DNA of 64,000 bases, from the NCBI GenBank assembly GCA_958009085.1, contig OY253674.1, positions 186,001 through 250,000 on the forward strand, read 5' to 3'. Each line of letters begins with the position of its first letter. Positions within the stretch are counted from its first letter, which is position 1. The translations under genes were made by a program, and so were the position numbers. This document shows, piece by piece, positions 4,001 to 46,400 of this stretch. A model generated the notes under the pieces. It searched no databases. It had not been told where the DNA came from and was given only the letters and a program-made list of their open reading frames with translations. The DNA is from Protoeuglena noctilucae (Eukaryota).

Positions 4001-7000
4001 GGCGGGGACTGCGGCGGGGGGAGCTGAGGGGGAATCGGGGGCTGGGACGCCGGTGGGTGGGGCGGCGGGGGCGGGGACGAGGTTCGCGAGGCCTAGGAAT
4101 CACTCCAGCGGGGCGCCGGCCAGGGTGAGGGGGATCATTGGGTGGGGTGGGGTGAGAGTGGTGGTGGGGTGAGGGGTAGCGAGATGGGGTGATGTGGGGG
4201 GGTGGTAGTGGGAGTGGTAAGTGGGGCGCCGGCCAGGGTGAGGGGGGTGGTTTGGGGGGGTGAGGGGGGTGGTGATTGGGTGGGCTAGTGGGGGTGGTAG
4301 TGACAGGCGGGGCGCCGGCTAGGGTGTGGGGAGGGGGGGGGGGGGTTGTGGGGTAGTGGGGGGAGGGGAGGGTGGGGTGGTGGCGAGGGTGAGGGTGGTG
4401 AGGGTGGCAGTGAGGGTGGCAGTGGGGTTGAAGGGTGTTAGTGTGGGCATGTCCAACCTTGGCGACTCACCGTGACTTACCATCACTCAATCCTCTCATC
4501 TCACCTTTTCTCATCTCACCTTCTCCCCCACTCTCAGGGCATGTCCAACCTGGGCGACTCCAAGACCCCTCGTCGCATGTCAGGCCACCCTTCTGTCAAC
4601 TTCGTGCATGCGGGGACGCTCATGTCCTTTCTGAACGAGGTGCAGAGGAGGTACTTGGATAACCCGTACCACAGGTGAGGGTGGGAGTGATGATAGGGGT
4701 GGGAGTGGGGGTGGTCATAGGTGTGAGGTTGAGGGTGGCAGTGGGGAAGTGGGGTGGGGGTGGTCGTGGGGTTGGTGAGCAGCACTCTCGTGTGCGTCTG
4801 CCCTGCAATCGTGCTTAGCAGATGGGAGCACGCGGTGGACGTGACCCACACGACCACGCATATGTAATAACACCACCAGTATCCCATGTATTATCAATAC
4901 TTATAACTGCTCTTCCCCCCCAGGTGGGAGCACGCGGTGGACGTCACGCACACCACCTTCATGATGCTCAAGACCTGCCGCTCCTTTCGCAAGCACTATT
5001 TGACCAAGCGCGACATCTTCTGCCTCATGGTGGCGGCCGTGGCGCACGACATGGGGCATCGCGGGGTGAGTGGAGTGGGGTGTTTAAATGGGGATATGAT
5101 GGTTGTGTGTGGGGCATGGTGCGACGCTCACTCCCACCCCCCATGCCACCCTCACTCCCACCCCCACTGCCACCCCCCATGCCACCCTCACCCCCACCCC
5201 CACTGCCACCCCCCATGCCACCCTCACCCCCACCCCCACTGCCACCCCCCATGCCACCCTCACCCCCACCCCCACTGCCACCCCCCATGCCACCCTCACC
5301 CCCACCCCCACTGCCACCCCCCATGCCACCCTCACCCCCACCCCCACTGCCACCCCCCATGCCACCCTCACCCCCACCCCCACTGCCACCCCCCATGCCA
5401 CCCTCACCCCCACCCCCACTACCACCCCCACTCCCGCCCCCCCCCCCCCCCCCAGGTCAGCAACGCGCACCTGGTCAAGACGGGCGACATCCTGGCGATG
5501 ACCTACAACGACCAGTCCCCCCAAGAGCACATGCACGTCTCTGCCCTGTTCCAGTTGTGTCAGAAAGTGCCGGGGGCCAACATATTCGAGAATTTCCCCA
5601 AGGCGGACTTCGAGGAGTGCAGGAGGCTCATCATCGAGGTGAATCACCCTTTTTCTTCAGCTGCCCTTACTGCCACCCCCATCATCAAACTCTCATTGCC
5701 ACCTCCACCACCACCCTCACTGCCACCCCCACTGCCACCCCCACCCCCACCCATGTTACCACCCCCACTGCCACCCTTACCATACCATCTCACTTATCGA
5801 TCACCATCTACCCCTCCCAATACAGTTGATCCTCGACACGGACATGGCGTGCCACTTCAAGCGCGTGGCTGAGTTGGAGGCGCTGCTCGCCAAGGCAGCC
5901 GCCAAGGAGGGCGTGCTGGTGGACAGCGACAGCGATAGCGACAGCGACGGGCCGTTCGGGCTGGAATCCATGGTGAGGGGTGGTACCGGTAGGAGTGATA
6001 TAGTTATGGTAATAGCAATGGTGACGCGCTCACCCACTCAACCACTCACTCACCTCCACTCAACCCCCCTTCCCCCGGCCGCCCCACTACTCACTCCGCC
6101 CCACCCACTCACCATCACTCCCTATCACTCTAATCAATCGCAATCATCTCCCCTCCAACCGCAGACCGACCACGCCCTCTCCCCCGGCCGCCCCACCCCC
6201 CGCTACGACCCATCCGACGTGCGGCAGATCATGCTCGCCATGCTGCACGCCGCCGACCTGGGCAACAGCGTGAAGCCCGTCCACTTGCACGCGCGGTGGT
6301 CGGTGCACGTGATTGAGGAGTTTTTTCAGGAGGCGGGGCTGCAGAAGGAGCTGGGTATGACGTCTTTGGCGTTCATGGACCCGGCGCAGTGCTACGTGCC
6401 GGTGACACAGGTGAGTTGGGTGATAAGGGGTGGTGGTTGAGGATGGGTGGTGGTGATGGGGGGTGTGGTGCAACGTGCCGGTCACGCAGGGGGGGGGGTG
6501 ATTGTGTGGTGATGGGTAATGGGTGGTGGTGATAAGGGTGATAGGGGTGGGGTGCAACGTGCAGGTCACGCAGGTGAGGGGGGGGGGTGATGGGTGGGGT
6601 TGATAGGGGTGGTGATGGGTGGACTATGATAAGGTGTGATCGATACTAAGTGTCACTACTAATCAACTTATCACACCATCCATCCGTCTCATCCAACCCG
6701 CAGCTCGACTTCCTCGACTTTGTGGCCCGCCCGCTCTTCTCGGTCATCAGTCGCCTGCTGCCCGAGGTGGACTACATGCTGGGCGCGCTGGCCAAAAACT
6801 ACGCCTTCTGGTGCTCCGTGCTCGCCGAAGACCAGTTTTCCAAGTGAGTTATGTGTATATATAGATATGGATGGGTTTCGTGATGGTAATGATTGATGGT
6901 CGACTGTTGATCAATGGTCGATGGGTTGATAAGTGGGGTGACATGCAGAGGACCAGTTCTCCAAGTGAGTCATTTATATGTGGATGGGTTGGTGGTAATG

Positions 7001-7880
7001 TTACTAAGTAGATGGTGATTGATGGTGGATGGATGGGGTGAGTGGGTGATCGGCTGCCTCCTCACCCTGACCTCCTCACCCTCACCCTCCCCTCCCTCAC
7101 CCTCACCTCCTCGCCTCACCTCTCTCTCCCCAACTGCATCACCCCCTCCCCCTCTCCCTCTCCCTCTCCCTCACCACCCCTCCTCACCTCACCTCTCCCT
7201 CCCCCCCCCCATTACCACCCCCCACTACTCACCTCTCACCACCCCCTCATCAACCCCTCACCTCCCCCTCACCTCCCCCTCCCCCTCCCCCATCCCCCCC
7301 CTAGGAACGCCTCCGGCCTCGTCTCCCACCCCTCGGCCACCCTCGTGCAGCGCCGTACCGCCAACAGCTCCGAGTTTAACATGGACGGCGCCAGAGCCAG
7401 ACAGGCAGCGTTCTCAGGCGCCCTGCGCCACGGCAACACCGGGCTGGGTGGTATGGGTGGTGGTGGTGGTGGTGGTGGTGCGGGTGCGGGTGGGGGTGGT
7501 GCGACGGCGTTGGTTATGCCGGAGGCTTATGCAGACAATGAAGATCAGCTGCGGGTGCTGTCGGCGGCCATTCCGCAGCTGCGGGCGATGGGGAGGGGGA
7601 TCACGGGTGAGGGGGGTGGGGGAGATGGTGGTGCGTGGTGCTGTGGCGGCGGTTACTTGGGGATGGACGGGAGAGGGGGGGGGTGCGTAGCTGTTAATTG
7701 TTGTATCATCGAATAGATAGATAAGAGAGGGTGGTGTAATGTGCTTGTGATGTGCAGCTCCATGCCCAGTCATGATGGTGGCATGACACGTCTGTCTGAC
7801 ACGCCTTTCCCGCAGACGCTGCCCTGGCGCTGGTCCCATCCGAAAAGAAGAAGGCGTTCGCGGCGAAGCTGGGGCTGTGA
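1069..7880 (+). CDS. Class I cyclic-nucleotide phosphodiesterase with N-terminal multi-pass membrane domain (about 12 exons; start uncertain)
   Basis: Spliced translation gives the PDEase motifs [65 protein letters not shown] and VTQ/LDFLDF. In-frame GT-AG exons: 1069-1468, 1557-2287, 2405-2780, 2965-3160, 3345-3539, 3725-4124, 4538-4673, 4924-5065, 5456-5638, 5826-5972, 6165-6410, 6704-6843, 7305-7606, 7816-7880. Exons 2-3 contain hydrophobic segments. Confidence 0.88.
5128..5450. repeat. Intronic 36-bp C-rich tandem repeat (CCCCACCCCCACTGCCACCCCCCATGCCACCCTCAC), about 8 copies
   Basis: Directly visible. It lies within PDE intron 5066-5455 and produces the spurious 12-aa periodic ORFs in the track. 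Confidence 0.95.
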
Positions 7881-13801: not shown

Positions 13802-16800
13802 ATGGCCTCCTCGAGCGCGAATCCCGAAGCGTCGGTGCCGGACCTTGCCGACTGGGGCCAGCAGTGCGACGAGGTGCTGGCCCTTGCCGCCATCTACGGG
13901 GACGCCTTCCGCATCGTCAATGGCACGGGCCTGCCCCCGCATCCGACGCCGGACGACCTCGATCGGTGAGCCCGTTCGCAACTGCATAGATCATGTCACT
14001 CGTCCATTTGCATCTCATCCATTTGCATCTCCTCCACTCGCTTCTATCTCCATGGCTCCTCACTGCGCCACCTCACCTACAGCAGCGCGACATCATACAT
14101 CGTCTTTTGCGCAGGGATGTGCCCGTCCCGGACCTGGAGGTGGCGATCGAGGTGCCCGTGGAGCTCCCCGGCCCCCGCGTGCGCCTGCAGCTCTTAGCCG
14201 CTGCGTCCGAGGGAGAGGTGGGCCCCAGCACAGCACGACCAGTGATTGGCAGAGTGCCATCGGCGGCCACGCCCCTGAGCCCCTCTTCGTCCGCCCCGCT
14301 AGTGCCGCTGCGGTTCTTGCCGCCCATCGAGGCTCGGGCGACGCTGGGTGCGGGGTACCCATCCACCCGCGCCCCGACAGCTCATGTGGCGGTGGAGTGG
14401 GGCAGCGAGGGCGCGGGCGAGCGGATGGAGGCTGCGCTGCGGGACGCGTGGGAGCGCGTGCGGGGCATGCCCGCGCTGCACGCGTGGGCGGAGTGGCTGA
14501 GGGAGAGCGCGCTCGAGGCGGCGGGGGTGGTGGACCTGGGCCCAGCCCCGCTGCTGCAGGTGAGGGGCGCGGGGGTGGTGTGGCAGGAATAGCAAGCTGC
14601 GGTTGCGATCGTGACAGTTTGCAACTGCGGTGGATGGTGATTGCTGATTTGTGAATGGTGATTGGATGGGCTGGGAGGGCTGTAAGCCGGTGGCAGGTGG
14701 AGTGCTTACTACTATGGATGGCACGCGTCACTGTATGGATTGCAAGCGTCGTTCCAGCCACTCCACAGGTGGTGCTGGGGGACGGGGAGGACGCGGACGA
14801 CGCGCTGCGCTATTTGATCGAATTCAGCGCGCGCAAGGAGCGACAGGCCTTCGAGGATCGCACCCACGAGTGCCAGCTTTGCGGGGAGGACAAGCCCGGC
14901 GCGCACTTCCTGCAGCTGCCCGAGTGCCGCCACGCCTACTGCCGGGCGTGCCTCACGTCGCTGTGCTCGGTACACGTCAAGTGAGGGCGCGATTCTGACG
15001 TGACACTTTGCGATTATGAGAAGCTAAGATTTGGGCAGTCTGCATAGAGCCTCACCTTCTAAGCCAACGGGGGAGGTGAGTGTTCATCCTACCCAGGTTA
15101 AGGTGCAGAGTGGCCCGCATCACGCATCCACACTTGTGCTAGACTTGTGACATGCATCCATGCCTCCAGGGAGGGCTCCCTGGCGATGCTGCGGTGCCCC
15201 GACCCCGAGTGCAAGCGCCCCCTGCCCCACTACGTGCTGAGGGACCTGCTGACCGACGAGGAATACCAGCGGTGGGACGAGCTGTCCCTGGCGAGTCGCG
15301 ATGCGCACATCACGATAAGCGCGTGGCACGTCTGCTGACTGACTATCCTTTTAGCAAGCGTGTTTGCACATTGTGCATGACACCTCGCACTTTTGCGCAT
15401 GGTACTACGCACCTCACACGCAGAATAGGCCCATTCCACCTGACATTCTGCATGCACTCCCACCCTGCAGCGCCATGCATGCACCTCCCCCCCAGCCCAG
15501 TCCCTTACCCCACCTCTCCCTCCGCCCCCCCAGTCGCGATCTCTGAGCGTAATGGGCCTTCAGTACTGCCCCAGGTGCAACACAGCTGCAGAACAAGAGC
15601 CGGGCCGCGAGAAGGGCGTGCCTCTGGCTCAATGTCCCAAATGCATGCTGGTCTTCTGTTGCCGGTGCCGATTGCCAGATCACGTGGGGGAGTCTTGTCC
15701 AGAGGCTATGTACAGAGCCGGGGCAGACGCGGAGGCACTCGAAGCGAGCATGCAGGGAGAGCTGGCCAAGTTGAAGCTGACGGCGGAGCAGGTGAGAGGG
15801 GTTACATGATCCCCCGGGCGGAGTTGCATCACCGATCCCTATCTCACGGACCCTAGAAAGGCCAGCTTGTGATGCAGCGCCGAACAATAGATGTTCTCAT
15901 GTTGAAAGTTCTACCCTCTGGTGCGTATGGGGCGTAACCCGCATAACCCGCATCACCCGTATCACCCGCATCGCCGCAGGAGCGGGAGCGCAGGCGTCTG
16001 GCGTCGGAGCGCCGTGCCGAGGCTGGTTTCCGCAAATACCTGAAAGAGACCGAGGTGCGCCACTTGCGGTGCCCGGTGTGCACGGCGGTTGTGTTCAAGT
16101 CGAGCGGATGCAACAAGATGATGTGCACCGCGTGGTGAGACCTGCTGACATGAGTGAGTGTGTCGAGCATGGCAGTATCGACTGAATGGCTCATCGTCAT
16201 TGCCTGGTAAGACCTTGCATCAAGCGCGTGTGATGTGGGGCGTGGCAGTGTCGGCGGCTTTGCCTGGCGAGACCTGTTAAGTGTTTCCAGGTCAGCCCAT
16301 GTCATAGCAGTGTCATCATTCAATGTTTCACTCAGTCTGCCTGACTCGTCCCCCTCCCCCCGCAGTTCCACTCCCTTCTGCTTCAATCACTGCCACATCA
16401 TTTACTCAGTCTACCTCACCCTCCCCATCCCTCGCAGTTCCACCCCCTTCTGCTTCCTTTGCGGCACTTGCATCTTACACAACCATATCACTCCTCCCCC
16501 CCGCAGTTCCACCCCCTTCTGCTTCCTCTGCGGCTCCCAGATCTCCGGGTACGACCACTTCAACGCCGAAGCACGAACCGGGTCCGCCCAATGCGCGGGC
16601 CGTCTCTTTGATCAAGAGGAAGTCAACGCATGGATGGCCGCACAGCAGTGGGTCCAGAACAACGCGCAGCGCAGGGCCCCTGCTGTGGTACGCGTGCCCG
16701 ACCGTGCCTACAGCAACTGTGTGAGGTGCGGGCAGCTGACGGAAAAGGTGGCGAACAACAACCACATGCGGTGTGCGGCGTGCAACAGTCAGTGGTGCTA

Positions 16801-16882
16801 TGTATGTCGGGCGGAGCTGAGGAGGAGGGGCACGCTGCACTTTGGGGAGCCGCCCAAGTGCCGACAGCACACGCCTGGGTGA
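13802..16882 (+). CDS. RWD-domain RBR (RING1-IBR-RING2) E3 ubiquitin ligase, RNF14/ARA54-like
   Basis: RWD start QCDEVLALAAIYG and LRFLPPI..GYPS. RING1 CQLC..CRHAYCRAC..CPDPEC. IBR CPRC..CPKCMLVFCCRC..H..C. RING2 CPVC..KSSGCNKMMCTAC/STPFCFLC. Additional C-terminal CVRC..NNNHMRCAACNSQWCYVC. Confidence 0.9.
16355..16533 (+). repeat. Triplicated acceptor and exon start (CGCAG TTCCACYCCCTTCTGCTTC) in the RBR gene
   Basis: Copies near 16361, 16433 and 16502. The third continues into the coding exon. Confidence 0.88.
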
Positions 16883-17211
16883 TGAGGGTTGTGTGTGGAT
16901 AGATAGCCACCTGGTTAGTATGGGTAGCTGGGGGGGTGTTGCGAGTGCCGTTGGCACACGCCGGAGTGACGTGGGTATCGGTGGGCTTGGGTTGAATCGC
17001 CAGGGATACTGGGCAAGTAGAGCAGATGGTGGGGTGTCAGGAGTGTCGTAGCAGACGCCTAGGTGACAAGTGCCGCTTTCATCAGTTCATAGTACCTCTC
17101 GTGTCGCCTATGGGTTTAATCCCGACCGTCAAGCACTAGCAAGCAAAGTGTCACACAAGTGATGTTGTCACATTCGACACACACACAGCTATGTCCGCAC
17201 ACGCCCCTCAG

Positions 17212-19080
17212 TCACTCCTCCTTTCCCCTCGGCAACCCCCCAGCCCCCCTAGCCCCGCCCTTCGCATCAATCTTGCCGCTCTCAGCGACCACCTTCGCCA
17301 CCGCCTTCTCATAGACCACCGCGAGCCGATAGACGTAATATGTCGATCCGTTCCACACACTCACGGATATCATGGTCAGGAGGAAGGCGGTGTGGAGCCA
17401 AAAACTGCGCCAGACCAGCAGCGGCCAGGCAAAGAGGGCCAGGCCGATGAGGGCGTGAAAGAGCATGAAGACGAACGCCTGGCCGGAGAGGGACTTGACG
17501 CCGAAGTTGCGCTCGATGCGCTGTGTATGGGGGAATGGAGGGGCAATGTCCAATCTACACCGAAGTTGATCGCATTGCGCTGCGGGGTGGTGGGGTGGCG
17601 GGCGATGTTCTGCGTCGCCCCTCACCCTGTGCATCTGCTGAGATTGCACCTGCTGCCCACCACCATCGCCCCTCACCTTGTGCATCTGCTGCTTGGCGCA
17701 GAAGTCCCCAAACACCGTGCGCCACCCCTTGGCCGGCATGTGGATGCCCCAGGTGCAGAGCCACACCACGTAAGGCACCCACCACGCGACGTACACAGCG
17801 AGGGTGGGCAGGTAGGCGTTGGCGAGACCCAGGGGCTCGGAGTGGGGCGTGGGAAGCGCGAACAGCCCCGGCCATGCCGCGGCGTATCGGTCCGGGAACC
17901 AACGTATGGTCCAGCTCATGAGGGCCGCGCTGGAGTGGATGAAGAGCGCGCCCTGCATGCGGTGCGATGCGACGGTGTTGAGTGGATGGGTGGATGAAGA
18001 GCGCGCCCTGCCGTGCAGTGCGATGCGGGAACGAAGTGATAGACTTGGTGAAAGATGAGAGATGCTGGCAGCGGTGGTAGGCACCGTCATTGCCCAGACA
18101 CCTGTATAATCGGTAAGCGTTTCTCACCAGATGGTCGATGGAGTGGAAGATGAGGGCGTTGGAGGTGAGGGCGATGGACCAGGCAAGGGGCCCATTGGCA
18201 ATGACGAACATCACCCGCAGCAGCGCGGGGCTGTGGGTCACAGCACGAACGGCGCTCCATGACGTGGCCGATCCCACCAGTGCGGCGAGGCCGAAGGCGA
18301 TGTAGAGCTTGTTCATCACCCAGCAATACTCGAGCCAGTACAAGAGGTGCTTGGATCGATACTTGCGAACCGCGAGGATGCCGGTGAGCACGGCTGTCTT
18401 GACGACCTGCGTGGAAGACGCAAGGGGCACTCGTGATGTGGTATATTACCATTATTATGTGATGTAATATAGGTGATGTCATGATGAGCGGTGAGCGAGG
18501 CTGTCGTGTGTGACACAGAATGAAGTGGAGTGGGTGACACGACGCTCGGTCTTAATGGGCCTCAGCAGCGGCACGGGACAGGACAGTCCTATCTCCCTGG
18601 CTGCGCTGCACGCGGTCATTGCACCGTGTCACCCAAGGGTCACCTGCCACACCCAGAAGTACTTGGGACAAGCGCCCAACAGGAACGCAGTGAGCGCCAC
18701 ATTCATCGTACCTAAGAAGAACGCCACGTTCCTGAGTGCAAGGACGTCACGATAAGGCTCGCGGGTGCAGCAGAGGCGCAGCAGAGGCGCGACGTCGACG
18801 TTTTCGGCTGGTGGTGTCACCCGAGCCCCTCGGCAAGCAGCCGCTCCTTCTGTAATCGGATCACTTTAAGCGCCTTCGCCACTCCGTCCGCCTCCTGCAG
18901 AAGGAGACGGCTTGGGCGCTCAGCGCGATAATAGGCGAAACTCTCAGAAAACGCATTGGAAACGCAGCCGCTCACCGAGGAGGAAAACGTCGTCCCTGTG
19001 CCGCGATGGGCTCCATCAGGACCCCCTTTTGGCGACAGGAGGTACCCGCTGATTCCCGTGTCCGCGTCTTCGCTTTCCAT
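17212..19080 (-). CDS. GPC1: Glycerophosphocholine acyltransferase (GPC1/GPCAT, DUF2838) family membrane protein
   Basis: Motifs VAFFLGTMNV..FLLGACP, KHLLYWLEYCWVMN, FVIANGPLAWSI..NALIFHSIDHL/GALFIH, YVAWWVPY and SVWNGSTYY match my recollection of this family. Multiple hydrophobic segments. Confidence 0.78.
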
Positions 19081-19376: not shown

Positions 19377-20360
19377 ATGGCGGGCATCGCAGAGGGGCAG
19401 GAGGTGCAGCCGCAGGACCTGCCCCGCCTGCGCTCTGCCGAGGGGCTCGTGACGCTGGTGGGCTTCGGTTCGCTCCTTAGCGAGCGCAGCGCGCGGACGA
19501 CGTTCCCGGACTTATCGAACTTAAGGCTAGGGCGCCTCGTGGGCTGGCGGCGCGTGTTTGCGCACGTGGCGCCCATCTTCTTCGAGCGCGGCATCGCGAA
19601 CGTGGAGACCCGCGAGATGTCCAGCCTCAGCGTGGAGCCTTGCCCGGGCGCGCGATGCGTCGTGTCCCTGTTCGAGGCGCCCATGTCCGACGAGCAGCTG
19701 GCCGCCTACGTTGAGAGGGAGCACGAATTCCGATTCGTGGCCGTGCGACCCACCGGCCTGGATGGCAGCCAAGTGAGACTTTGCAACGACTCTCAGCCCG
19801 CTGCATATAGCACCCCGCTAGCCACAAGTTGTAATGACACTGGCTTCTGCACCCCAACAACTCCTAACTCGTTGCGCATGGCACCCCGCTAGCTGCTGGT
19901 CGTAATGCTCCTGGCTCGTCCAATCGCAGGGCGAGGGCCTCGCCGTCGTCTGCGCCCGATACTCCGATGAGGAGTACCGCGCCAAGCGGTGCCCGCCGGA
20001 GGAATTTGAGCGGCGCTACGGCCGCTTCGGCATCGACCGCGTGTGGAGGGACGACGTGCTGCCCTGCCAGGTGATCTGGGGTGATGGGGCAACCCGTCTG
20101 CTGCTCCACGCCGGCGCTGTGCTTGCCGGATGGTCAAACGGCCGTCCTCGACCCCATGCCGTGTCGCCCGCCAAGCGCAGGTCTATTGCAGGCACTGCGT
20201 CCTGGCGGCCCAGCGCATGGGCGGCGAGGCCTTGGAGAGCTTCCTGGACGACACCTATCTGGCAGACCGCAAGACCACCTTGCGTGAGTATCTGGCAAGC
20301 CACCCCCACGTCATGGCGTCCGAGCCGCCGCCCTCCCTCGCGGAGCGCTACTCGGGATGA
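19377..20360 (+). CDS. Conserved hypothetical protein with gamma-glutamylcyclotransferase-like N-terminal motif (3 exons)
   Basis: VGFGSLLSERSARTTFPDL..GWRRVFAH..EREHEFRF and C-terminal VYCRHCVLAA..FLDDTYLADRKTTLREYL. In-frame GT-AG junctions. Confidence 0.65.
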
Positions 20361-20424
20361 GCTGATTCGTAACATCCATTGAACGGACAGCGGACAAGAA
20401 CACGAGGGGAAAGCTATTGCATAT

Positions 20425-29617: not shown

Positions 29618-29887
29618 GGGGCCTGGATTTTGAAAATGCGAGTCGGTGGGTTGTTCACAAGTGTTGGTTTTGAAAACTGTGAGTCCGGGCGTCTCTCATG
29701 ATAAGTGCTCGGTTTGAACAGTGCATGAGAGGGTGTTGGGTCGGTGCGAGTTGTGCTGTGCGCGGCTGTGTCGTGAGTCGCAGTGGAGGCGGGGAGAGGG
29801 GATGGCAGAGTGACGGCGATAACAGCGATTCAAACGGAAAGGCGCCTCTGCTTATCCATCGCTTCCCTCCCACATATGCGCGTCTTG

Positions 29888-32800: not shown

Positions 32801-35800
32801 GGGGTGGGGAGGCGCAAACGCAAAGCGCTCTTTGCTGAGTGGTACGCAAACCCATCTCCATACAACCCCTCGAAACGAAACAGTAAGAACATCTCATCGC
32901 AACGTTCGCGTCTCACCGGCTCTTCCTGCGGCGTCCCCGGCGCTGCGGGCGCCTGGCCCGGCGTGGCGGGGGTGGCGGCGGAGCGGGCGGGGGGCGAGGC
33001 ATCGTGGCTGACGGAGCCTGGGGCCGGGAGGGCCTTGGCCTGCGGTGCCGCCTCGGCTCTGCGGGGAGTGGAAGGGACAGAAATGGAACTGACCCGACCG
33101 TGTTATTGGTTTAAGTTGGCACGATATCACGCACGGTGGATCTCACATCACACATCGCACATTACGCATCACCCATCAAACTTGACATCAATCATCACCC
33201 ATCCCACATCCCACATCACCCATCGCACATCAAACACTCCGCATCACCCATCCCACACCATCCATCCCGCTCCCCACCTGGCCCCATCCCCCCCCGCCCC
33301 CTCCTCCTCCTCTCCCTCTGACCTCGCCAGCAGCGGCGTGACGGGGTAATACCGGGGGCGACCACGGCCATCCACAGCCACGCGGAGCTGCGGAGGAGGC
33401 GGGGAACGACACTAGGGTGAGATGGACCGATCATTTGCGATTGATAGTAATGATGCAACCCATAAACTACATGGATGAGCATGATTCATATTCATCCATC
33501 TTATGACTGGCACAATAATGTTACATCGCGGATTCGCCCCTGCTGTGTCCCAATCACCCCCATCCCCCACACACCACCCGACCACCCAACCACCCGCACC
33601 GACACCCTCACCCCCCACCCCCGCCAACCCCCATCCCCCCCTCACCAGCGCCTTGCGGACCGTCTGCGACCCCGCCCCGCGCCACGGCGACCGAATATTC
33701 AGCGGCCCGCTCCCCAGGCCCATCCCAGCCGACCCTTCACCGGGCGTCGACACGCCACCCGGACTGCGGCTCCTGTCCCTGTCAGCCCCGTCACCCCCCA
33801 GGCCCCTCAGTCTTGTAGGTGGCGACGGCAGCGTGCTAGGCTCGCGCTCCGGCGACGCAGAGGTGGCCCGGGCGGCTGGGGTGGTGCGGGCGGGGGTGGG
33901 CGGTGCGCCGACGGCTTTGGGGGCGCGGCGGGCGTGGCGGGCATCCCTCAGGCCCCGCTGCACCCTCTCCAGCCTCTGCAAGAGCTGCGCGAGCTTGCGG
34001 GAGCCCAGGTCCCATTCCTGGGGGGAGGGGGGGGGTGTGGGGTGTGGGGCGAGGGGTGTGTTATGGGCAACGCAACGCAAGGCTTGCGCTACTTTGCTAG
34101 GGGCTAGGGTGCATGACGGGTGGGTTTCAGTTCAAGTGCAGAACTCGCCCCTGCATCTATTCATCGTTATATATCAATAGAAATCGATAGATATCAATTT
34201 TAATACGCATGCCCATGCAACTTGCCTGTGCGTCCGTCACCCCATCAGCCCCCACGCTGCGCCTGGGCCCCTCCCCCCTGCACGCCGCCACCATCTCCCG
34301 TGCTTGGGGAAGCTGCCTTTCCACCACCGCCGCCAACGCGCACACGCACCCGAGGGCGTGCTCGAGCTCTTGCTCTGCATTGGCCTCTCGGGGTGGGAGG
34401 GGCGCGGAGGGGTCGTCACCTGAGAGGGGTGGGGGTGAGGGTGGGGGTGGGGGTGAAGGAATAGGAAGTGACGGGAGTAGTTGGGAGTGCGATAAGCTAA
34501 GCGCCCCTCACCTCCCGCTCCAATCTCTTCCTGCAGCGCCTCCCTCCGCACTTCGGCCTCGGCCAGTCGGTCCCTCAGGGCATCCCGACGCCTGCGCATC
34601 TGCCGCCACCCGCGCCCCAAAGCATCGACGGCGTCCGCGGTCTCTTTGATGGCCGACCAGAGGGACTCGACACCGCTCGCCGTGGCTGCGGGGGGTGGGG
34701 GTGGGGGTAGGGGGGTGAGAGTTGATCTCTATAGTGCCGGACCAAAGGGACTTGATTCCGCTAACTGTGGCTGCGGGGGTTGGAGAACCCAGGTAGCAAG
34801 CGACCACAGCTGCAATGGCAACCATCCTGGCACCTCTGCGCAATCATATTCTGCTTGCTAACCGCAAATCCCACATGATGTTCGCACTGGCTCATCACAC
34901 ACACAGGTCTTCTGAAACGCGGTGTCTAGGAAACGTCGCTTAGCAACTGCAGTCATGCAAGTATCACACACTGGTCACTCACTGGTCTTCTCGAAAGCTG
35001 TGTCTCAGAACCGTCGCTCAGCAACCACAGTCATACAAGCATCACACACACACTGACTCACTGGTCTTCTGGAAGGCCGTGTCGACCGTCGTGGCCCCCT
35101 GCCCCGCAGACGCCAAAGTGGCGAGGATGGCCTGGCACGCGGCGGCCTGCTTCCGGACCTCGTGCATCTTCGCAAGCATGTCGGACTCGATGGGGCGCGC
35201 GGGGGACGACTCCGGGAGCTGCGGGGGCGGACGGATGAGATGACGTTACTAAAATCGGAGGCGACCATCAGAGCTGTATGATAGGATCAGGCTGGCTTTG
35301 GAAGCCAAGCGTGTGTCGGTGCACATCCATGCACATCGTGCGGCATGGTGTAGCAATGCCAGTAACTCCAAATCACAAATCACGGTACCCTAACATAACC
35401 TCAATAAAACCCCAAACCCAACACCTCACCTCCGGGCTCGGCGCCTGCACGGCGGCCGGCGGCACGGGTTCTGGCGCCACGCCCCCTCTCTTGGTGTGGA
35501 AGGACACCAGTCGCCGCGCGGCCCCCGCCGACCCGCGAACCGGCGACCCGGGAGTGCGGGCGCGGGGCGGCGAGGGCGTCGGGCCCAGGGGCGAGCCGGG
35601 GGTGGGTGCCAATGAGGGGCTCGCCAAGGACGGGCTCGCTTCGGCTTTGACCGATAGCTTGGTGGCGACCAGGTCAGCCAGCTTGTCCAAAAGGCCCCGC
35701 GATGAGAGGAGGTCGAGCAGAGCGGCGTTGTCGAGGGTTTGGAGGGCAGCGGCGGTGGCCGCGGAGGGCTGCGGGGGTTGCGGGAAGCGGGGTGATAGTG

Positions 35801-38800
35801 GGCCAAAGGTCGCAGGGCCAGCCCACGCTAATGTCGCCAGCAGCGCAAGTTGCAATGGGTGGATAGGAGAAGCAAACAGGGCGGCGCGTTCACTATTAGC
35901 AACTGCAAGACTGCATCATCCCAAACAGCGCTCCCATCTATCTCCTCTACCACTCACCTTGCTCTCCTCCCCCTCCCCATCCGCGAACAGAGGGTTGGCC
36001 TTGGCAGAGATGGGCGAGGCACCCATCCCATTGAAATCCAGAGCCCTGGCGCCCTCAGCGCCGCGCCCGGCTGCCCCGGGAGCTGCGGCGGGCATGGGCG
36101 GTGTTGCGGGGCTGTCGGGGCTGCCTTGCGCCGCGGGCTTGCCGTGACCGGGCGCGGGGGTCTGCGGGAACGTGCAGGAATCGTGTATTGTGTGTTGCAG
36201 GGATCTACAATGTAATGTACTTTGCAAAGCCTTGGACGCAGTTGAGGTGCAGCTGCGCGGGGTGACAAAGGGCGATCGACGGTCCGCGACAGGCAGGCTG
36301 GCGCTGCTGATGGTGTGTGTCTGTTTTACATGTCTGCCTGTAAGCTATGCCCTGCTGTCGACATCGCAACGATGGCGGTGCATGGCGTACTTCCATGTAC
36401 TGCAGCGATGCCACGCCAAAAGTAAAGGATAGCTTACAAGCAGCCAGTCACAGCATGTACTACCAGTGATGTGCCATTGACGGAAGTGCGCAGCTCACAG
36501 GCACCATTACAGACCGGGTCCACCACGCTGTTCACCTGTGCAAAGGCAAACGCCGGGCCGTCCGCCTGCTTCCCTCCCGCAAAGGCAAAGGCGGTCCCTT
36601 GTGCCGCAGCAGTGCTGGGAACAGGGTTGGCCCACTTGGGAGTCACGGCCGGCTGCTGCATCGCTCGGTCCGACATGGGAGGTGGGGAGGGGGCCACCCC
36701 GGGCCTGCAGGGATGAAGCACGCAACACGAATGGGGCGAGGGTGTGACGATGGCTGACACCTGGAACGTATGTGAAAAAACAGAGTCCATACTATCAGTC
36801 AGTCCATAGTCTATACATATGTATATCTATGAGTTCTTATTACGACTCACTGCTGGGGTTTCGGAAACACGGGCGCCGCGAAGGCACCAGGCTGGGACAG
36901 AGCCGGCTGCGCGTGCATCGGGGCTTGGAAGGTAGTTAGCTGGGCAGACGGAGGGGCTTGGGAGGGAAAGGCCGTGGCAGCTGCAGCTGGAGCTTGGCCC
37001 TGGGCTTCCCCCGACGGCTTTGTCGACACGCGCCCTTGCGCTTGCGTCGGCTCTCGTCCCTGCCCCTGCATCAACGCGCTCCCCTGCCCCTGTGTCGCTT
37101 CCCGTCCCTGCGCGTTCACCACCACGAATCCCTCCTCGCCCTCCTCGTGGCCCTCCTCGCGGGCTTCCCCCGGAGTTGGTTCTGACACCGTCTCTGACGC
37201 CAGATCGCTGTCGTCGTAGTCAGAGGCCCCGAACACTGCGGAGGGCGCAGAGTCAATAATGGATGATCGCTAAACGATTGCTGGACAATTTGACAAAGCC
37301 AAGCTGTCATTTGATGCGACGGAGCAGCCTCAACAGCGATAGCCACGCAAGCGTGTCTTTGTCTCACAGGCACGCACAGGCACGAGAGAGAGTAAAGCAC
37401 AAGGTGGGGTGTGTGAGAGACAGGAAGAGGGTGTATGCCTGCCTGTGAGAGACCGCATTGATCACAAACAGTCCTCAGCCCCCTTGCCTGGGATGGGGGC
37501 GGGGCGCGCGAGGGCGAGGTTGCGGGGGAGGGCGGTCATGGGGCGGGGGTCCGAGACGACGCCACCGGGCCTGGCGTAGTGGGACTTGTCGACGGAGCCG
37601 ACCGAAAAGACTCTGCGGGTTTAAGTGAGGTGAGTGGAAACATGGGACTTGTTACCAGACACCATCACCTTAGTAGCGCTCATGAGCTTGAGTGAGAAGA
37701 CAGGCGGCATGCCGACCGTAGATGGGTGGTCTGGTGAGTGCAATACACTGACTATACATCAAACCCCCATAACAAGGGCATCCAGACCACCCAAGCGCGC
37801 ACCTGAGCCGACCGTCGGACGTGGCAATGATGACGACGGGCGAGGGCGGCAGCGAAGGGCTGTCGACGGCGTCCGTCGGGTCGTAGAGCTCCTGCAGACC
37901 CGCAGGCAGCTTGCAGAGGGACACGCCGAGACCGACGACGAAGTTGTCCGCTGCAGAGAGCAAATACGAGAGCGAATGAGAGAGCTGAGCATCGTGTTAA
38001 GAGAATGTGGCCAAGCCAGCCCTAATCGTTCCAATCCGCACTTTGCATTATAGCTGCATCGAATAACGGCGATAACAAGCAACCCGGCGCGGGTCGCAAT
38101 CGCGGCGAGCGTCACCTGCATCCGATGCAGGGTCGCTCTTGTCAAAGGGGATGCGCACGTCCCTGTCCTCCACCGCCTCGACGCCGGCGAGCTTCGCGGG
38201 GAGCAGGATATTCAAGTGGTAGTCGTAGGCCCAGCGATGGGCGACGAGCGCGGCGCCGAAGCCGGGGACTGCGGGCGGGGCAGCGCAAAGGTTGCAGCGC
38301 GTGAAAACACGAACATCCGCCGGCCGCGCTGCCCGACTTAGGTGCGGGTGACATCTCTGCGGCGCAACTCACTCTTGGCAACGAGCAGGTGCTGCCCCGG
38401 CGGCTCCCGCGGGTCCGCGCTGGGCGTGGGCGACGGCCACAGGACGCCCAAATGGGCCGCCTGCGTCCTTGCCCCCAGGTCACGCCCCGAACTGCCCAGC
38501 ACCAATGCGACTCCATCCACCTGCCCGCCAGGATCCGCCTTCGCCGGCCGCTCCTCAAGCAGGAGCCTGCAAGTGCAAGAGAGGAGAGAGAGCACTCGTG
38601 TGCTACACTCATCACACCATACATGCCTGGGCTGCGCCTCGCCGACCCACTCCCCGCTCGCCTGTCGGGAGCGAGCCAAGCCAGGGACCCCACCGCGATC
38701 CCATCGGCCATCTGTGGCGCAACCACTGCCGCCTGGGCGATGCGGGTGCCCTCTTGATCCATCTTCGCCAGCACCACCCTGTCTCGCAGGGACATGGCCA

Positions 38801-40440: not shown

Positions 40441-43400
40441 ATGCTCAAGAGCAAGGCCTTCATCAAGGTTGGACGCGCCGCCCTTTGGAAGCCCTTCAGA
40501 AGCCACAGTGGCGCAGCGAGCCTGCGACCGCGCAGGGCATGGCCGCGTCGCTTCGGGAGAGGCCCTCCCGCTCGTCCTCGCGTCGATGTGATCGCCAAGC
40601 CACTCTATATGTTCCGCAGAAGACCCGGAAGGGCGCCGTGAGCAAGGTGGTGCGGGAGCACTACCTCCGCGATGACATTTCGTGCGGGTCGGCCTCTTGC
40701 GCGTCGTGCGCGGCCCCGGAGGCCGGCGCGCCGCTCTCCGCGGGCCCCGGCGTCACGTACCTGGTCGTCGACACCAATGTGGTCCTCCACCAGCTCGATT
40801 TGCTGGAGCACGCGTCGGTGGCGAACGTCGTTCTCCCGTCCGTGGCGCTCGAGGAGGCCCGCAAGCGCAACCACGCGGCCTATACGCGCGCGCGTGCGAT
40901 CGCCTCGACTTCCGATCGCCATTTCTACGTCTTCGCCAATGAGAACCACAGGGACACGTTCGTGGAGGCGAGTCAGGGCTGGGTGTCATTGTCACTTGTC
41001 ATGTTGTCATGGCACAGCTGCTGTCTCTGGGCTTTAGCTATGGTTTCCATCGGCTATATCTGCTGCATGCGCTGTAGCGGCAACTCGTGCGCCACCGATG
41101 GCACCTTCCCCACACCTCCAGCATGTGACTGCCACGTCTCATGCAGCACGTTCGGTATCGCACCCGCCCACCCTCCGCGCCCCCGCAGACGCTGCCCGGC
41201 GAGTCCCCGAACGACCGCAACGACCGCGCCATTCGCCGCGCTGCCAAATGGTACGCTGAGCATCTGGCGGGCAAGGGAATCAATGTCGTGCTTCTGTCCG
41301 ACGACGCTGACAACCGCGCAAAGGCAGAAGGTGAAATGAAGCATCGGAGAGATGAAGCATTGGAGACACAAAGCGATGTGTGTGCATTATAAGCAAGCAC
41401 GCTGGTCCGCGCTCGCTTGACGCCCATGTCTCTGTCTAAGCTCTCATCGCACCTTCCAGGACCCATCTATTCTATCACACACAGCATGCTCCTGACCCAT
41501 CGCCACCCCACCACCCCCTCCCGCAGAGGACGGCATCCGCGCCCTCTCCACGTCCCAATTCGCCGAGTCCAAAGCCTCAGAGTGCCCAGACCTGGCGGAC
41601 CGAGTCGCGATGCGCGACGCTCACCCGCTGAACAAAGAAGAGCACCGGGATAGCCGGGGCGGGAAGCGGACGAGGCTGGCGCTCTATCCGGAGCACTTGC
41701 CTGAGGCGGAGCTGCTGGCTGGCGTGCGGGGGGGCAGGCGAGTGGGGGGCATTGGGGATGGGGGATATGTGAGGTGCTGAGTGGGGTGCACGGGGGCAGG
41801 CGAGTGGGGGGCCTTCCAAGGGGCTCGGGGATGTGTGAGGTGCTGGGTGGGGTGTGCGAGGGTAGGCGGGCGGGGGGCATTGTTACGGGGGGACGTGTGA
41901 GGTGCTGGCTGGGCAGTGGTGTGCTCTATGCAAAGTCCTGTCACCTACATGTCTCGTTGCAACCCCTGCAGGTTCCACCAGGGCCCCATCCGCATGTCCC
42001 GGTATAACCCCTTCGAGGGTTTCCTGGCTTCCGAGTCCGTCGGCCGCGACATCATCGTTTCTGGCAAGCTGGAGCTGAACCGGGCCATGGACGGGGACGT
42101 GGCGGTCGTGGAGCTCCTGCCGCAGGAGCAGTGGAGGGGCGAGGCCAGGGAATTGCCGCAGGAGGTGAGGGGGCTGCTGGGTTGTTGGGACGTGCGTGTG
42201 TACCTGCTCGTGCGCTTTTTGCTGAAGTACAGTCAAGCTGAGGCGGCAGCTGGATCGCTTGGTGAAGTACCTGGATGCGCATATCGTGCTATGCAACGCA
42301 CATCGTGCTTTACACCGCACATTGTGCCACACACCGCACTTCGCAGGGCGGCGAGGCGGGAGAGCCGAAGGAGCAGGGAGCCGCGGGCATTGCGGATTGG
42401 AGCCTGGGATCGAATCAGGTGGACGCGGTGGGTGCGGGGGCGCGCAAGCCGTGCGGGCGGGTGGTGGGCATCCTGCGCCGTGCGTGGCGCAGTCGGGGCT
42501 ACTGCGGGAGCCTGCTTGCGCCGGACAGGGTGGGCGGCAGCCAGAGCCTGCTCTTTCTGCCCGTCGACCGGCGCATCCCCAAGGTGCGCGCTTGCTGCGT
42601 GGGACAGGGGCAGCGTGGGCTCTTTAGCAAACAGCATGGGTTGATGTGCGCTTGCAGCGATGGTGACGCCATGGTGTGCCACATGGGTCGTGCGCCACAG
42701 CATACTCAACATCCATGTTTAAAATCCATTATTTGAATACCCGCGTTTGCAGATCCGGATCCGGACGCGCCAGGCCGAGCAGCTGCTGGGCAAGCGCCTG
42801 GTGGTGGCGATCGACGACTGGCCCGCCACGGACAGCCACCCCCAGGGCCACTACGTCCGCACCCTGGGGGAGGCGGGGACCATCGACACCGAGACTGAAG
42901 TGGTGCTGCACGAGCACGACGTCAACTCGGCGCCCTTCACCCAGGCGAGGCCGGCGCCAGTGTTGTATTGTTGCGGGTAGTGTTGCGGGTTCTAGGTTCT
43001 GCCCTATGGGGCTGCAGCACAGGGTGGGTGTGGGGTGGCAGTGTTGTTAGGAGTAGTGTTGCGGGTTTTCCCCACTGGTGCTACAGCACAGCGTGGGGGT
43101 GGTGAGGTGTAACTCGGTGGCTGCGAGCGTCGATATACATATTTGTTTCTTCCGTGTCTTGCAGGCTGTCCTTAACTGCGTGCCCCTGCTGCCCTGGGAA
43201 GTGGCGGACGAGCACCGCAAGCAGCCCCACCGGGGTGAGTCGCTGTGGCTGTCTGCTGTGCTGCTCGGGCTACGTTGGGCTGTGCTGATGGGCGATCAGT
43301 CTGTCACAAGCAACTCGGCTCAGCTCAGCTCAGCTCAGCTCAGCTCAGCTCAGCTCAGCTCTGCTCTGCTCTGCTCTGCTCTGCTCTGCTCTGCTCTGCT

Positions 43401-46400
43401 CTGCTCTGCTCTGTTACCATCCTCGCCGTCCCTGTCACACCCGCAGAGGACCTGCGTCACGTGTGCGTCATGTCGGTGGATCCGCCCAACTGCAAGGACA
43501 TCGACGATGCCCTTCACATCCGGGACCTGGGGGACGGCACGCTCGAGGCGGGGGTGCACATCGCGGACGTGTCGGAGTTCGTGAGGCCGGGCACGGCGGT
43601 GGACAAGGTGAGCGGAGATGGGCAGTGCAGTGCTGTGGGCGACGTGGGGGTGGAGATGAGATGAGATGGGCAGGGCTGTGCATGCGGTGTGGGGATGTGA
43701 GGTGGACAGTGTTGTGAGGCCGGGGACGGCGGTGGCTAAGGTGGGTAGAAGGGCCTGCGATGTGCAGTTGGCAGTGTTGTTGCCGACAGTGCCCCACCCC
43801 TCACCCCGCAGGAGGCGTCTCTTCGTAGCACGACCACGTACCTGGTATAGCCACGAGATGAGCAGTCGGCAGTGCTGTTGACAGTGCCCCATCTATCGCC
43901 CCCCGCAGGAGGCGTCTCTTCGTAGCACGACCACATACCTGGTGCAAAGGCGTATCGACATGCTGCCCAAGGCACTGACGGAGGAGATCTGCTCGCTGAA
44001 GGCCAACGTGGAGCGACTCACCTTCTCCGTGATATGGAGACTCACGCCGGTGACGGCGGAGCACGGAGCACAGTGTGCGCGGTGTGACTGACGACGGGTC
44101 ACACTGACGGTCGATCCAGCCGACAGTAATGTCGTTTTGGAATGGCAGCTGGCATGCGGCGACCGCAAGCAATGTGTACCATGGTACATCTCCCAAGCAC
44201 ATGCCATGACAGCACGTGCCATGACAGCACGTGCCATGACAGCACGGGGCCTCACGCATACACCCAGCATACACCCCTCTCCCCGGCCCTCACATCGTTT
44301 CCCCGCGCGCCACCGTCCCCTCAGGAGGGCGACGTGCTGGAATCGCGTTTCACCAAGGGTCTGATCCGCTCCCGCGCCGCTCTGACCTACGCGGAGGCGC
44401 AATCGCGCATCGACGATCCGAACGACAAGAGCGACATCGCTGCGTCGCTGCGGCTCATGAACGACCTCGCCAAGAACCTCCGCCGGCGGAGATTCCAGGC
44501 CGGGGCTCTCGAGGCGCGTCGCGGGGCTGCGGCTGTGTTGCACGCTCGCACTCGCGCTCACACACCCACGCACGCCCACGCGCGCACTCGGTGACCGATC
44601 CTTGGCTGTCAGTCGCTACGGCTCGACCCCGGCGGTGTCGGGTTCGAATCCCGTTGGCGATTTGACTCTCCTTTTCTCCTCCGCAGCTGGCGTCCCCCGA
44701 GGTCAAGTTCCGCATCGACCCCGACACGCTTGAGCCCAAGGAGGTGTCGGTGTATGAAACGCGGGACACGAACCGAATGGTCGAGGAGCTCATGCTGCTG
44801 GTGAGTGAGCGAGGCATGCTGAATAGTAAGGGTTTGCTGCAGGTGAGGTGGGCAAGGGCATGGAGTGGAATGGACGTGTGTCAGAGTGATATGGATAGTA
44901 GCATGCACGTGACAGAGTGAGATGGAACTCGTGCTGGGGTTCGAGGGGCATAGACATGGGATGGGTGTGCGAGTGATAGAGTGAGCGCACAGCTGCTGGC
45001 TGTTCCATATACTCCTCCCCTAATGACCCTCACTCCTCTCTCCCTTTATCCCCACCCTCCTCTCCCCTCTCCACCCCCCAGGCCAACGCGACGGTCGCCG
45101 AGCGCATTCTCCACTCTTTCCCCGCCTGCTCCGTCCTGCGCCGCCACCCCACCCCCACCGAAGAGATGTTCGCCCCACTGGTGGGCGCCGCGGCATCTGC
45201 CGGCTTTACTGTTGACGTCACCACCAGCCTGGCCCTCAGCAAGTCCCTCGACAAGTGCGTGCGAGAAGCCGACGCCTTCTTCAACAAACTCATCAGGCGA
45301 GATGCAATGGGATGTGTGGAATCTGTGTGGGACCAATCTTGATGCTCAGTTACTAGGTACGCGACACCGACGCCTTCTTTAACAAACTCGTCAGGCGAGA
45401 GGGGTGGTGATGTGCGGGACCAGCGATGTACAGCTAGCACCTTTGCACCCCCTTGTGTGACTGCGACAGTCACCAACAGTCACGAGCTGTTGCCAAGCTC
45501 CCCATACAAACCCCGCCCCCCAACTCCCACCCAACCCGCTCACCCTCCCCACCCCCCAATATCACAGCCACCCGCTGCACTACCCCACCCATCCCACCCC
45601 CAACCCCCCCCTCACCCTTACCCACCCCCCAGGATCATGGCGACCCGCTGCATGACTCAGGCGGTCTATTTCAACACGGCAGAGCACTCACGCCCCGAAT
45701 TTTATCACTACGGCCTCGCCATGCCCCTCTACACCCACTTCACCTCCCCCATCCGGCGATACGCCGACGTGTTCGTGCACCGCCTCCTCGCGGCCGCCAT
45801 TGGACTCGAACCCCTGCCGGACAGGTGAGGGTTGGCATGGCGGCATGCGTTGGTGTGCTTTGCTTGCATTGGACCTGAACCCCGCAGTATGCCCCCTTCC
45901 CTCACTGCCATCCATCCACCCTTATACTCACCTTATCCCTTCTTAATCACTGCCGTTCGCACCTTATGCGCCATACCCACCCCATATCGCACCCACGTGA
46001 ACTCACCCCCACCCCTTCTCACCCACCTGCAGCTCCTTCGGCGACCGTTCGCGCCTCAACGCGGTCGTGGACAACATCAACACCCGCCACCGCAACGCCC
46101 AGTTCGCCGGCCGCGCCTCCTCCGAGCTGTTCATGACGCAGTACTTCAGCGGCAAGACACAACATGCGGACGGGCGGGTGGTGCGGGTCCGGCGCAATGC
46201 GGTGGTGGTGTTCCTGCCCAAGTACGGCGTCGAGGGGGTGGTGTACCTGGGGGAGAAGGGGTCCAAGGAGGTGAGAGTGGTTGAGGGGTGTGTGTTCGGG
46301 ATTGATGGGTTTTGTCGGAGCATGTGGGCTTGCGAGGAAGGGTGTCGTGTGGTGCGGCTATCAGTGGTGGCTTGGACAGGGTGCCGAGGAGTGACAGGAT

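Follow-up and report, generated by a model that had tools for sequence, protein, structure and literature searches.

Intronic echoes of exon ends and their codon-periodic divergence in a 64-kb window of Protoeuglena noctilucae

Genes of the window and echoes in their introns

The window described here is a stretch of 64,000 nucleotides of Protoeuglena noctilucae (assembly GCA_958009085.1, contig OY253674.1, positions 186,001 to 250,000 of the forward strand), and all coordinates given below refer to it. Its GC content is 0.59–0.70, and its genes are made of numerous short exons separated by introns packed with G- or C-rich repeats. Inside these introns lie what we call echoes, short direct copies of the last or the first 13–48 bases of the adjoining exon, often including the splice site. 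The echoes differ from their exons mostly at third codon positions, and this divergence, pointed out in an earlier note on the same DNA, is the main subject of the analysis. Public runs that carry DNA of the window include marine metagenomes, marine metatranscriptomes, and four runs labelled as one organism.

Pfam matches identify a class I cyclic-nucleotide phosphodiesterase gene at 4.5–6.8 kb (exon identity PDEase_I), a DUF2838 gene on the minus strand at 17–18 kb, and a PIN-domain gene (Pfam PIN) at 40–46 kb, the RNase II / DIS3-like nature of which is read from translated motifs. An HSP90-like gene at 52–56 kb is recognized by its translation only. The membrane-protein-like gene at 26.1–29.2 kb is named G3 here; no Pfam family matched its exons. 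The gene model was obtained by training a codon-usage model on clean exons (GC at codon positions 1/2/3 of 0.635/0.431/0.901) and chaining exons by dynamic programming. Six exon ends were then corrected according to the splice motif or RNA, three doubtful exons were removed, and two were added by hand. None of the 102 exons of the final list contains an in-frame stop, and exon frames were fixed blind to the echoes.

Comparison of the window with itself, combined with local alignment, recovered the loci listed in the earlier note and several further ones. When 60 exon bases and 25 intron bases of each junction were aligned to at most 400 bases of adjoining non-coding DNA (score at least 32), same-side direct matches were found at 22 of 192 exon boundaries, or about one in nine. 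On the opposite side of the exon only one of 196 boundaries had a match, and random non-coding DNA gave six of 196 even with the best of 20 draws taken for each; at least two of these six scored exactly as the real echo of their own query and probably landed on echoes. An exon-only query at a score of 30 gave 16/196 direct matches on the same side, 0/196 inverted ones, and 1/196 on the opposite side. The excess on the same side over both the opposite side and random DNA places the echoes far beyond chance. The start-to-start distance between echo and exon is 42–217 bases, 51–105 for most, and is divisible by three in nine of 22 cases. The self-comparison revealed no dispersed copies of echoes elsewhere in the window.

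Two types can be distinguished. In eight echoes of the tandem type the duplication extends to the intron part of the unit (z > 3), and three of them belong to three-copy arrays; Tandem Repeats Finder reports arrays at 34898–35083 and 43759–43943. In about eight echoes of the isolated type the copy is limited to the exon piece, with no similarity between the flanks (spacer z < 2). Judged by eye, the AG directly before the echo is kept in seven of nine acceptor-side echoes, and a GT or GC donor in at least six of 11 donor-side ones, with intact donors following the echoes at 6552, 6945, 29012, 35004, and 45367. Most echoes carry one splice signal only, and stop codons soon follow those at 4823, 26567, and 43812. 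The three-copy loci (28921, 6389, and 35083) are mosaics of differences. In that of G3, the two echoes depart from the exon together at two sites, and one of them does so at three more, while in the array at 35083 two fourfold-degenerate sites have three different bases across the three copies.

Tandem duplications that are wholly intronic are also present at 19784–19916, 41709–41913, and 49107–49226, with units of 46–71 bases that are 72–78% identical. Since these lie in the size range of the echo units, the process of duplication is not specific to junctions.

The echoes are described below gene by gene, with mismatches between echo and exon given as triplets for codon positions 1/2/3. On the plus strand, the first one (2855–2883) repeats the exon end 2750–2778 of a gene located at 1.2–2.8 kb; its donor is lost, and its 29 columns contain 0/1/1 mismatches, changing Arg to Pro. 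In the phosphodiesterase gene, also on the plus strand, the exon start 4538–4560 has an isolated echo at 4446–4468 with no AG before it (23 columns, 0/0/1), the spacer of which is not duplicated (z = −1.5), and the exon start 4925–4957 is repeated at 4823–4855, where the AG is kept and a TAA comes soon after (33 columns, 0/0/3). A C-rich match of 6063–6106 to 6172–6215 is doubtful, consisting of a 17-base identical core with low-complexity flanks (3/4/3). The exon end 6389–6410 has two echoes. The first, 6468–6489, has lost its donor and belongs to a tandem unit of about 79 bases (1/0/2, Tyr to Asn) in which the intron part is duplicated too (z = 4.5), and the second, 6552–6578, is followed by an intact GTGAG donor (1/1/2) and has three differences in common with the first. 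The echo at 6945–6979 includes the exon end 6824–6843 together with the start of the intron and its intact donor; its 20 exon columns (0/0/3) fall below the threshold of the exon-only pipeline. An intron of this gene also contains a 36-base minisatellite (5129–5454, 9.1 units, 96% alike), the unit of which is the reverse complement of a G-rich motif in neighbouring introns (4397–4426 and 4728–4757), meaning that one repeat family fills the introns in both orientations.

Two echoes of the exon start 16507–16534 in a RING-between-RING-like gene (plus strand), at 16366–16384 and 16438–16465, each have one difference (0/0/1), as well as their own polypyrimidine tract and AG. In the region 16857–17070 the last codons of this gene and its stop (16857–16882, in an exon added by hand) are copied within the 3′ untranslated region at 16944–16969 (plus strand, 1/2/2), and a weaker copy can be seen by eye near 17040. 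Copies of a coding end in a 3′ untranslated region show that copies independent of junctions also occur. In the DUF2838 gene, on the minus strand, the exon end 17679–17691 is repeated at 17628–17640 with an intact donor, the next codon being changed from Lys to Arg. The exon start 17935–17952 is repeated at 17990–18007 together with 20 intron bases and the AG, without mismatch in the 18 exon columns and with two mismatches among 19 in the intron part.

In G3, on the plus strand, the echo at 26567–26599 repeats the exon start 26653–26685 with its acceptor tract and AG, has a TGA in the spacer, and differs by 1/0/2, all synonymous. An isolated echo at 27576–27611 copies 27484–27519, near an exon end (36 columns, 0/0/2), and the echo at 27678–27697 consists of an acceptor and the first 11 exon bases (27761–27771), none of which is mismatched. 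At 28017–28043 the exon start 28080–28106 is repeated with the AG lost (0/0/3). The exon end 28921–28968 has two echoes: one at 29012–29064, with a 5-base insertion, an intact GTGAGT donor, and 0/0/3 mismatches, in which the intron part is duplicated too (z = 3.4), and another at 29138–29185, with 0/0/5 over 48 columns, all synonymous. The 42-base spacer before the former begins with GT (28969) and ends with AG (29009–29010), and, if taken as a tiny intron, it would put the second half of the echo in frame; other introns are 150–400 bases long, and the in-frame reading of 29011–29064 is therefore taken as a coincidence.

In a coiled-coil gene on the minus strand, the exon start 34641–34685 (the exon was added by hand) has a more diverged echo at 34726–34770 that keeps its acceptor (2/4/6). 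Also on the minus strand, the exon end 35062–35083 is repeated at 34983–35004 (1/0/2) and 34906–34926 (0/0/3) in a 78-base tandem array of 2.4 units. The DIS3-like gene, on the plus strand, has an echo of the exon end 43581–43602 at 43714–43735 (0/0/1) and one of the exon start 43909–43943 at 43812–43846 (0/0/1), the latter in a 97-base tandem duplication with a TAG after it and with seven mismatches among 50 columns and two gaps in the intron part. Its exon end 45269–45296 is repeated at 45367–45394 with a GC donor kept (1/0/1); extended by eye to 45357, this echo has three synonymous and three non-synonymous differences. The intron concerned (45297–45632) itself has an apparent GC donor (exon end ...ATCAG, intron start GCGAGA), read as such from the inferred continuity of the protein across the junction, and the echo has the same GC donor at 45395. 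At 45536–45579 an acceptor region and the first 20 exon bases (45633–45652) are repeated with the AG lost (0/1/3 in the exon part). The last echo, at 53685–53705 (plus strand), copies the exon end 53628–53648 of the HSP90-like gene with 1/1/0 mismatches, Tyr to Cys and Asn to Asp; both differences are non-synonymous, and it lies outside the range 4446–45400 covered by the earlier note.

Elsewhere in the window, Pfam identifies an MT-A70 methyltransferase gene and, on the minus strand, a UDP-glucose dehydrogenase gene. A long coiled-coil-like reading frame with 21-, 42-, and 63-base tandem repeats occupies 59640–62468 on the minus strand; the gene finder favoured the antisense strand there, and its exon calls in this region are unreliable.

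Divergence of echoes by codon position

Two pipelines were used for counting. In pipeline A, an exon-only query was aligned with match +2, mismatch −3, gap −12/−2, and a threshold of 26 at 196 boundaries, so that 232/232/231 sites were compared at codon positions 1/2/3. All of its 24 matches taken together have 14/14/46 mismatches, with a ratio of synonymous to non-synonymous differences of 47 : 27. Without two low-complexity matches (the C-rich one at 6063 and a microsatellite at 43311) the counts are 8/8/40 and 41 : 15, and in the 13 matches that score at least 34 they are 2/1/24 and 25 : 2. Pipeline B, based on alignment of the whole junction, also gave 24 matches, with 8/7/42 mismatches and third positions accounting for 42 of 57. 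The share of third positions is thus 62% for all matches and 71–74% without the low-complexity ones, above the limit of 50% that had been set beforehand for one coding and one neutral copy. Over 20 parameter settings the share was 0.42–0.92, the value of 0.42 belonging to the loosest one, which admits chance matches, and a bootstrap over 16 loci with shared differences counted once gave 0.70 (95% interval 0.57–0.87).

The near-silent divergence described in the earlier note is accordingly confirmed in part. Its five quoted examples (4823, 6945, 26567, 28018, and 29138) are all present in the sequence as written. Its hand tally of about 35 synonymous to 4 non-synonymous differences is near the truth for the clearest echoes, as indicated by the ratio of 25 : 2, but is overstated for echoes in general, and real non-synonymous differences are found in those starting at 2855, 6468, 6552, 16944, 17628, 34726, 45367, and 53685.

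A dead intronic copy next to a conserved exon would by itself produce some excess at third positions. This null was simulated on the real loci with the same alignment and threshold, letting one copy evolve freely and the other change synonymously only, and the resulting share of third positions was 0.44–0.46. At the highest simulated rate (about 49 mismatches, compared with 56 observed), the observed 0.71 was not attained in any of 400 runs, of which the highest gave 0.646. Divergence like that of coding sequence, beyond what one coding and one neutral copy would yield, is therefore upheld.

Base composition does not explain the excess, since every class of change is enriched at third positions. 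Exon G or C is replaced by A or T in the echo at 22 of 212 third positions, as against seven of 244 other positions, and C/G swaps are seen at 16/212 and 4/244, respectively; classes of change starting from A or T behave similarly, and each class is 3–8 times commoner per site at third positions. Selection for better codons was considered as well and rejected, as the exon has the commoner codon in 26 of 41 silent differences (p = 0.12) and in seven of 16 C/G swaps.

The intron parts of tandem units offer a yardstick of their own. In the eight tandem-type echoes these parts have 52 mismatches among 283 columns and 13 gap blocks, while the exon parts have 12/76 at third positions and 3/149 at non-third positions. 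About 13 non-third changes would be expected if the intron part were a fair neutral yardstick, although it may run fast, being partly of low complexity. Duplicates confined to introns, taken as a neutral control, amount to seven pairs with 33 mismatches in 203 columns, a set that is too small and of which some members may lie in unpredicted coding sequence.

The signal is not uniform among the genes. In the phosphodiesterase gene and G3 the mismatches are 2/0/21, that is, 22 synonymous and one non-synonymous difference (p = 5.6e-6 against a share of 0.456). All other genes have 6/8/19, and their third-position count of 19/33 does not depart clearly from the same expectation (p = 0.11); the two groups differ with p = 0.007 by Fisher's test.

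Contigs, paralogs, and the origin of the echoes

Contigs of four runs were compared with the window between 26001 and 46000; two of these, X1 and X6, are DNA runs that were assembled separately. Records 2, 3, 5, 6, and 7 of X1 and records 15 and 18 of X6 have no letter that differs from the window. Among them, record 2 of X1 bridges the echo at 26567 and its exon, record 3 of X1 and record 15 of X6 bridge 27576 and 28017, record 5 of X1 bridges 29012 and 29138, record 18 of X6 bridges 34906–35004, and records 6 and 7 of X1 bridge 43714 and 45367, respectively. The pair at 34726 is likewise bridged by exactly matching contigs; for the pair 43812/43909 there is no bridging contig among the records listed. 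That the whole arrangement might result from two haplotypes or strains stitched in series, which the earlier note had named as a possible refutation, would agree with a marine metagenome sample (S2) being flagged by the run search as a possible source of window DNA, and with an echo spacing near the short-read length. The contigs of X1 and X6 have the same arrangement, without a difference, and include the junctions of spacer and echo, so that such an artefact is excluded for the bridged loci at 26–46 kb. Moreover, the sequence upstream of isolated echoes is unlike that upstream of the exon, and their junctions must exist in real reads. Taken over all loci, an assembly artefact is extremely improbable.

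In the RNA contig X10 record 8, letters 412–604 align with 27333–27525 and letters 1–247 with 28080–28326. The 164 letters between the two aligned parts equal the length of the exon 27761–27924, from which it would follow that splicing removes the echoes at 27576 and 28017 along with their introns. The depth of the contigs adds several observations on the region. In X1, the depth of the bins with exons (36673–38006) exactly equals that of the single main contig, 43.4. Between 26285 and 28362, the G3 contigs of X1 reach about half the depth of those around them (24.7 and 33.3, compared with 43–66), a drop that could reflect noise or else a second, diverged allele; X6 has no such drop (8.2, compared with 5.4–9.9). 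At 29336–30002 the summed contig depth jumps to 1034 in X1 and 737 in X6, with many loose ends at 29366–29410; this segment contains a microsatellite of the GCGGGT type common to many other loci or organisms.

Both genes with the strongest signal also have signs of paralogs. A contig that matches G3 in the exons only is present in X1 (depth 68.3) and X6 (depth 9.87) and differs at 33 of 180 and at 22 of 134 bases. It skips the introns at 26739>27097, 27164>27350, 27529>27800, and 27867>28162, and one of its letters is also present in an RNA contig. It is identical to G3 over at least 40 bases (26700–26739) and differs at 16–18% in the other aligned pieces, and its depth in both DNA runs is similar to that of the main locus. 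At 27486, the only differing site with a paralog letter among those listed, the echo has the letter of the paralog and the exon differs. For the phosphodiesterase, the reading frame of a 728-base public contig, P0001, is identical for about 87 residues to an intron and exon of the window (6003–6410) and continues as a diverged phosphodiesterase with an intron seven or eight codons upstream of that of the window, before the CYVP.. codons. P0001 may be a paralog with a conversion tract, a case of shifted intron position between paralogs, or a chimeric contig.

P0001 was the only match in a protein search with the phosphodiesterase exon. Protein searches with a G3 exon and with the reading frame through the echo at 28017 returned only the window's own protein. 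A scan of metagenome contigs with a G3 exon matched 460 pattern stretches, none of which was confirmed as a relative, and a protein atlas search with the HSP90-like exon yielded no usable taxonomy. The protein searches thus yielded no relatives by which the changes could be polarized.

The explanation that we prefer, at a little less than an even chance, is that the echoes are error-prone by-products of duplication at exon junctions and that the silent-only divergence came about through exchange with a diverged coding homolog. Some echoes would be short tandem duplications with units of about 45–220 bases, and others isolated templated insertions of 13–48 exon bases into the repeat-rich neighbouring intron, both arising at replication or during break repair in such introns. 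Splicing would use the copy continuous with the exon, and the echo would thus stay intronic, silent, and harmless. In most genes the echo would then decay, while the exon copy changes silently only. In the phosphodiesterase gene and G3, one copy would derive from a diverged coding homolog (a paralog or an allele): either the exon would have undergone gene conversion once the echo was in place, or the echo would have been templated from the homolog. Loci with silent differences only need variation that has already been filtered by selection on the protein, which is why we infer exchange with a diverged coding homolog. The view of the earlier note that the copies diverged while coding is to this extent supported in part.

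Several observations weigh against this explanation. No donor sequence is seen. The G3 paralog appears too diverged to be the donor (about 82–84% identity in two exon pieces), and at two of the three listed sites adjoining 27486 the echo differs from it and agrees with the exon. P0001 may simply be a chimeric contig; moreover, the known paralog is far diverged, yet frequent conversion should make paralogs alike. The third positions are lopsided, with exon G or C facing echo A or T 22 times and the reverse four times, which suggests that some decay of echoes, or a gain of GC in exons, is part of the picture, and which would not be expected if two coding copies of equal bias had exchanged symmetrically. 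Outside the two genes, five tandem-type echoes have one non-third difference among 81 sites, compared with 25/159 in their intron part, and with this profile, small as the numbers are, the effect cannot be claimed to be confined to gene families. The evidence from RNA covers only the echoes at 27576 and 28017, both of them without an intact decoy splice site.

The profile of the tandem-type echoes, with intron and third positions diverged and non-third positions kept, is that of two functional homologs, and the pattern in the five echoes just mentioned extends it beyond the two family genes. Both observations are in line with capture from a second diverged genome copy, an allele or homeolog, at the time of formation, by unequal exchange or template-switching break repair. 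The X6 contigs hint weakly in the same direction that related variants may exist in nature (214 of the 290 placed ones are 90–99% like the window, although many could be repeats). No second copy is present now, as the exon bins of X1 have the depth of a single main contig; in addition, a donor with some 15–20% silent divergence would be needed for many genes, with about one event per 3–5 kb, the asymmetry of 22 to 4 would be unexpected between equally biased coding copies, and the tally outside the two genes fits a dead copy. We therefore regard capture of this kind as unlikely. We can also speculate, with rather more expectation but still doubtfully, that the echoes are scars of the repair of breaks near exon–intron junctions, at which a conserved exon adjoins an intron that cannot be aligned; the junction of a diverged homolog would have been copied and the ends then joined out of register. 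Each echo would thus sample another functional copy of the genome, such as that of a former hybrid partner, a duplicate since lost, or a distant allele, and a bolder variant of the same idea holds that echoes stay compatible with coding through continued exchange with the exon.

At the other end stands the assumption that echoes are plain dead copies, in which case purifying selection on the exon, together with chance and the way the loci were chosen, would create the silent bias. The expected share of third positions is then already 0.44–0.46, a level at which the genes outside the phosphodiesterase and G3 could lie and near which the loosest setting falls; echoes with non-synonymous differences, the 5-base insertion at 29012, and lost splice sites fit as well. 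It is made very unlikely by the simulations, by the bootstrap interval, by the 42/57 third positions of pipeline B, and by the 21 of 23 in the phosphodiesterase gene and G3. Selection on the echoes themselves, whether they serve splicing as alternative or decoy sites or act as spare templates for exchange with the exon, is distinctly improbable, too. It would account for non-third sites being better kept than the adjoining intron part, for the preserved AG and donor motifs, and for the mosaic three-copy loci, which suggest exchange among copies. Use in alternative splicing, which the earlier note had named as a possibility, is not supported, given the RNA contig that leaves out two echoes, the stops after three of them, and the distances, of which only nine in 22 are multiples of three. 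By reasoning rather than computation, exchange between echo and exon alone yields no silent bias and is rejected as its source, and indirect selection through rare conversion would be too weak with silent sites 20% diverged. Nothing suggests a dedicated, undescribed system of the kind the earlier note had in mind; the echoes read as by-products of local duplication or templated repair. A simple dead-copy model does not account for the codon-periodic conservation of non-coding copies, which is strongest in two genes.

Meaning and comparison with known systems

If the silent-only divergence reflects exchange with diverged coding copies, the echoes are dated snapshots of exon sequence and could be used to gauge how often paralogs or foreign alleles overwrite the exons of an uncultured marine eukaryote. 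If they are repair scars, the set of echoes would be a readable record of a vanished or rare partner. If decay turns out to be ordinary genome-wide outside gene families, the finding shrinks to frequent small duplications at junctions, and its interest is modest. Decoy splice sites at about one exon boundary in nine also represent a natural test of splice-site choice in this organism.

Literature searches found no description of intronic copies of exon ends with silent-only divergence. The closest described case is the minisatellite in intron 7 of human F7, the first 37-bp unit of which spans the boundary of exon 7 and intron 7, and in which the most upstream donor is used and its downstream copies are silent (Borensztajn et al. 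2006, PMC1557585). Head-to-tail units, with the first one spanning the boundary, are likewise present at 28921/29012/29138, 6389/6468/6552, and 35083/35004/34926. In contrast to F7, a single locus, echoes are found here at about one boundary in nine and also on acceptor sides, about eight of them are isolated, without a duplicated flank (spacer z < 2), and the units have diverged in a codon-periodic way. The downstream donors of F7 are silent. The RNA contig listed here across echoes covers those at 27576 and 28017, neither of which is accompanied by an intact decoy site.

Intron gain through tandem duplication of exon segments that bear AGGT, as reviewed in PMC3443670, also relies on small tandem duplications in genes that copy splice signals and are tolerated since splicing removes the extra copy. 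In that model the duplicated exon sequence itself becomes the new intron, which resembles the downstream exon at its 5′ end and the upstream exon at its 3′ end (PMC3443670), whereas each echo copies the adjoining exon end and its splice site within an existing intron, and no new intron results. Introners of marine protists with target-site duplications resemble the echoes in occurring in marine eukaryotes, in having direct repeats at intron edges, and in affecting many introns. The echoes, however, are imperfect copies of 13–48 bases rather than short exact target-site duplications, and in the self-comparison, which covers 64 kb only, no dispersed spacer copies of an introner-type family were found. 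Mutually exclusive or cassette exons were considered and rejected, given the single splice signal of most echoes, the nine in-frame distances among 22, the stops, and the skipping in RNA.

Internal gene duplications were reportedly treated by Gao and Lynch in 2009, which is probably the nearest general account. End joining by polymerase theta generates templated insertions and small tandem duplications, in which the copies are identical to the template when formed. The echoes resemble its products in being direct copies, some tens of bases in length, that lie within about 100 bases of the template, but identity at formation leaves the silent-only divergence unexplained. Ectopic gene conversion within a gene family brings in blocks of differences that have been filtered beforehand by selection and are mostly silent. 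The strongest signal is likewise found here in two genes with signs of paralogs, though neither a conversion tract nor a donor is seen. Compared with these systems, an intronic copy that serves as a record of the state of an exon before conversion would be new.

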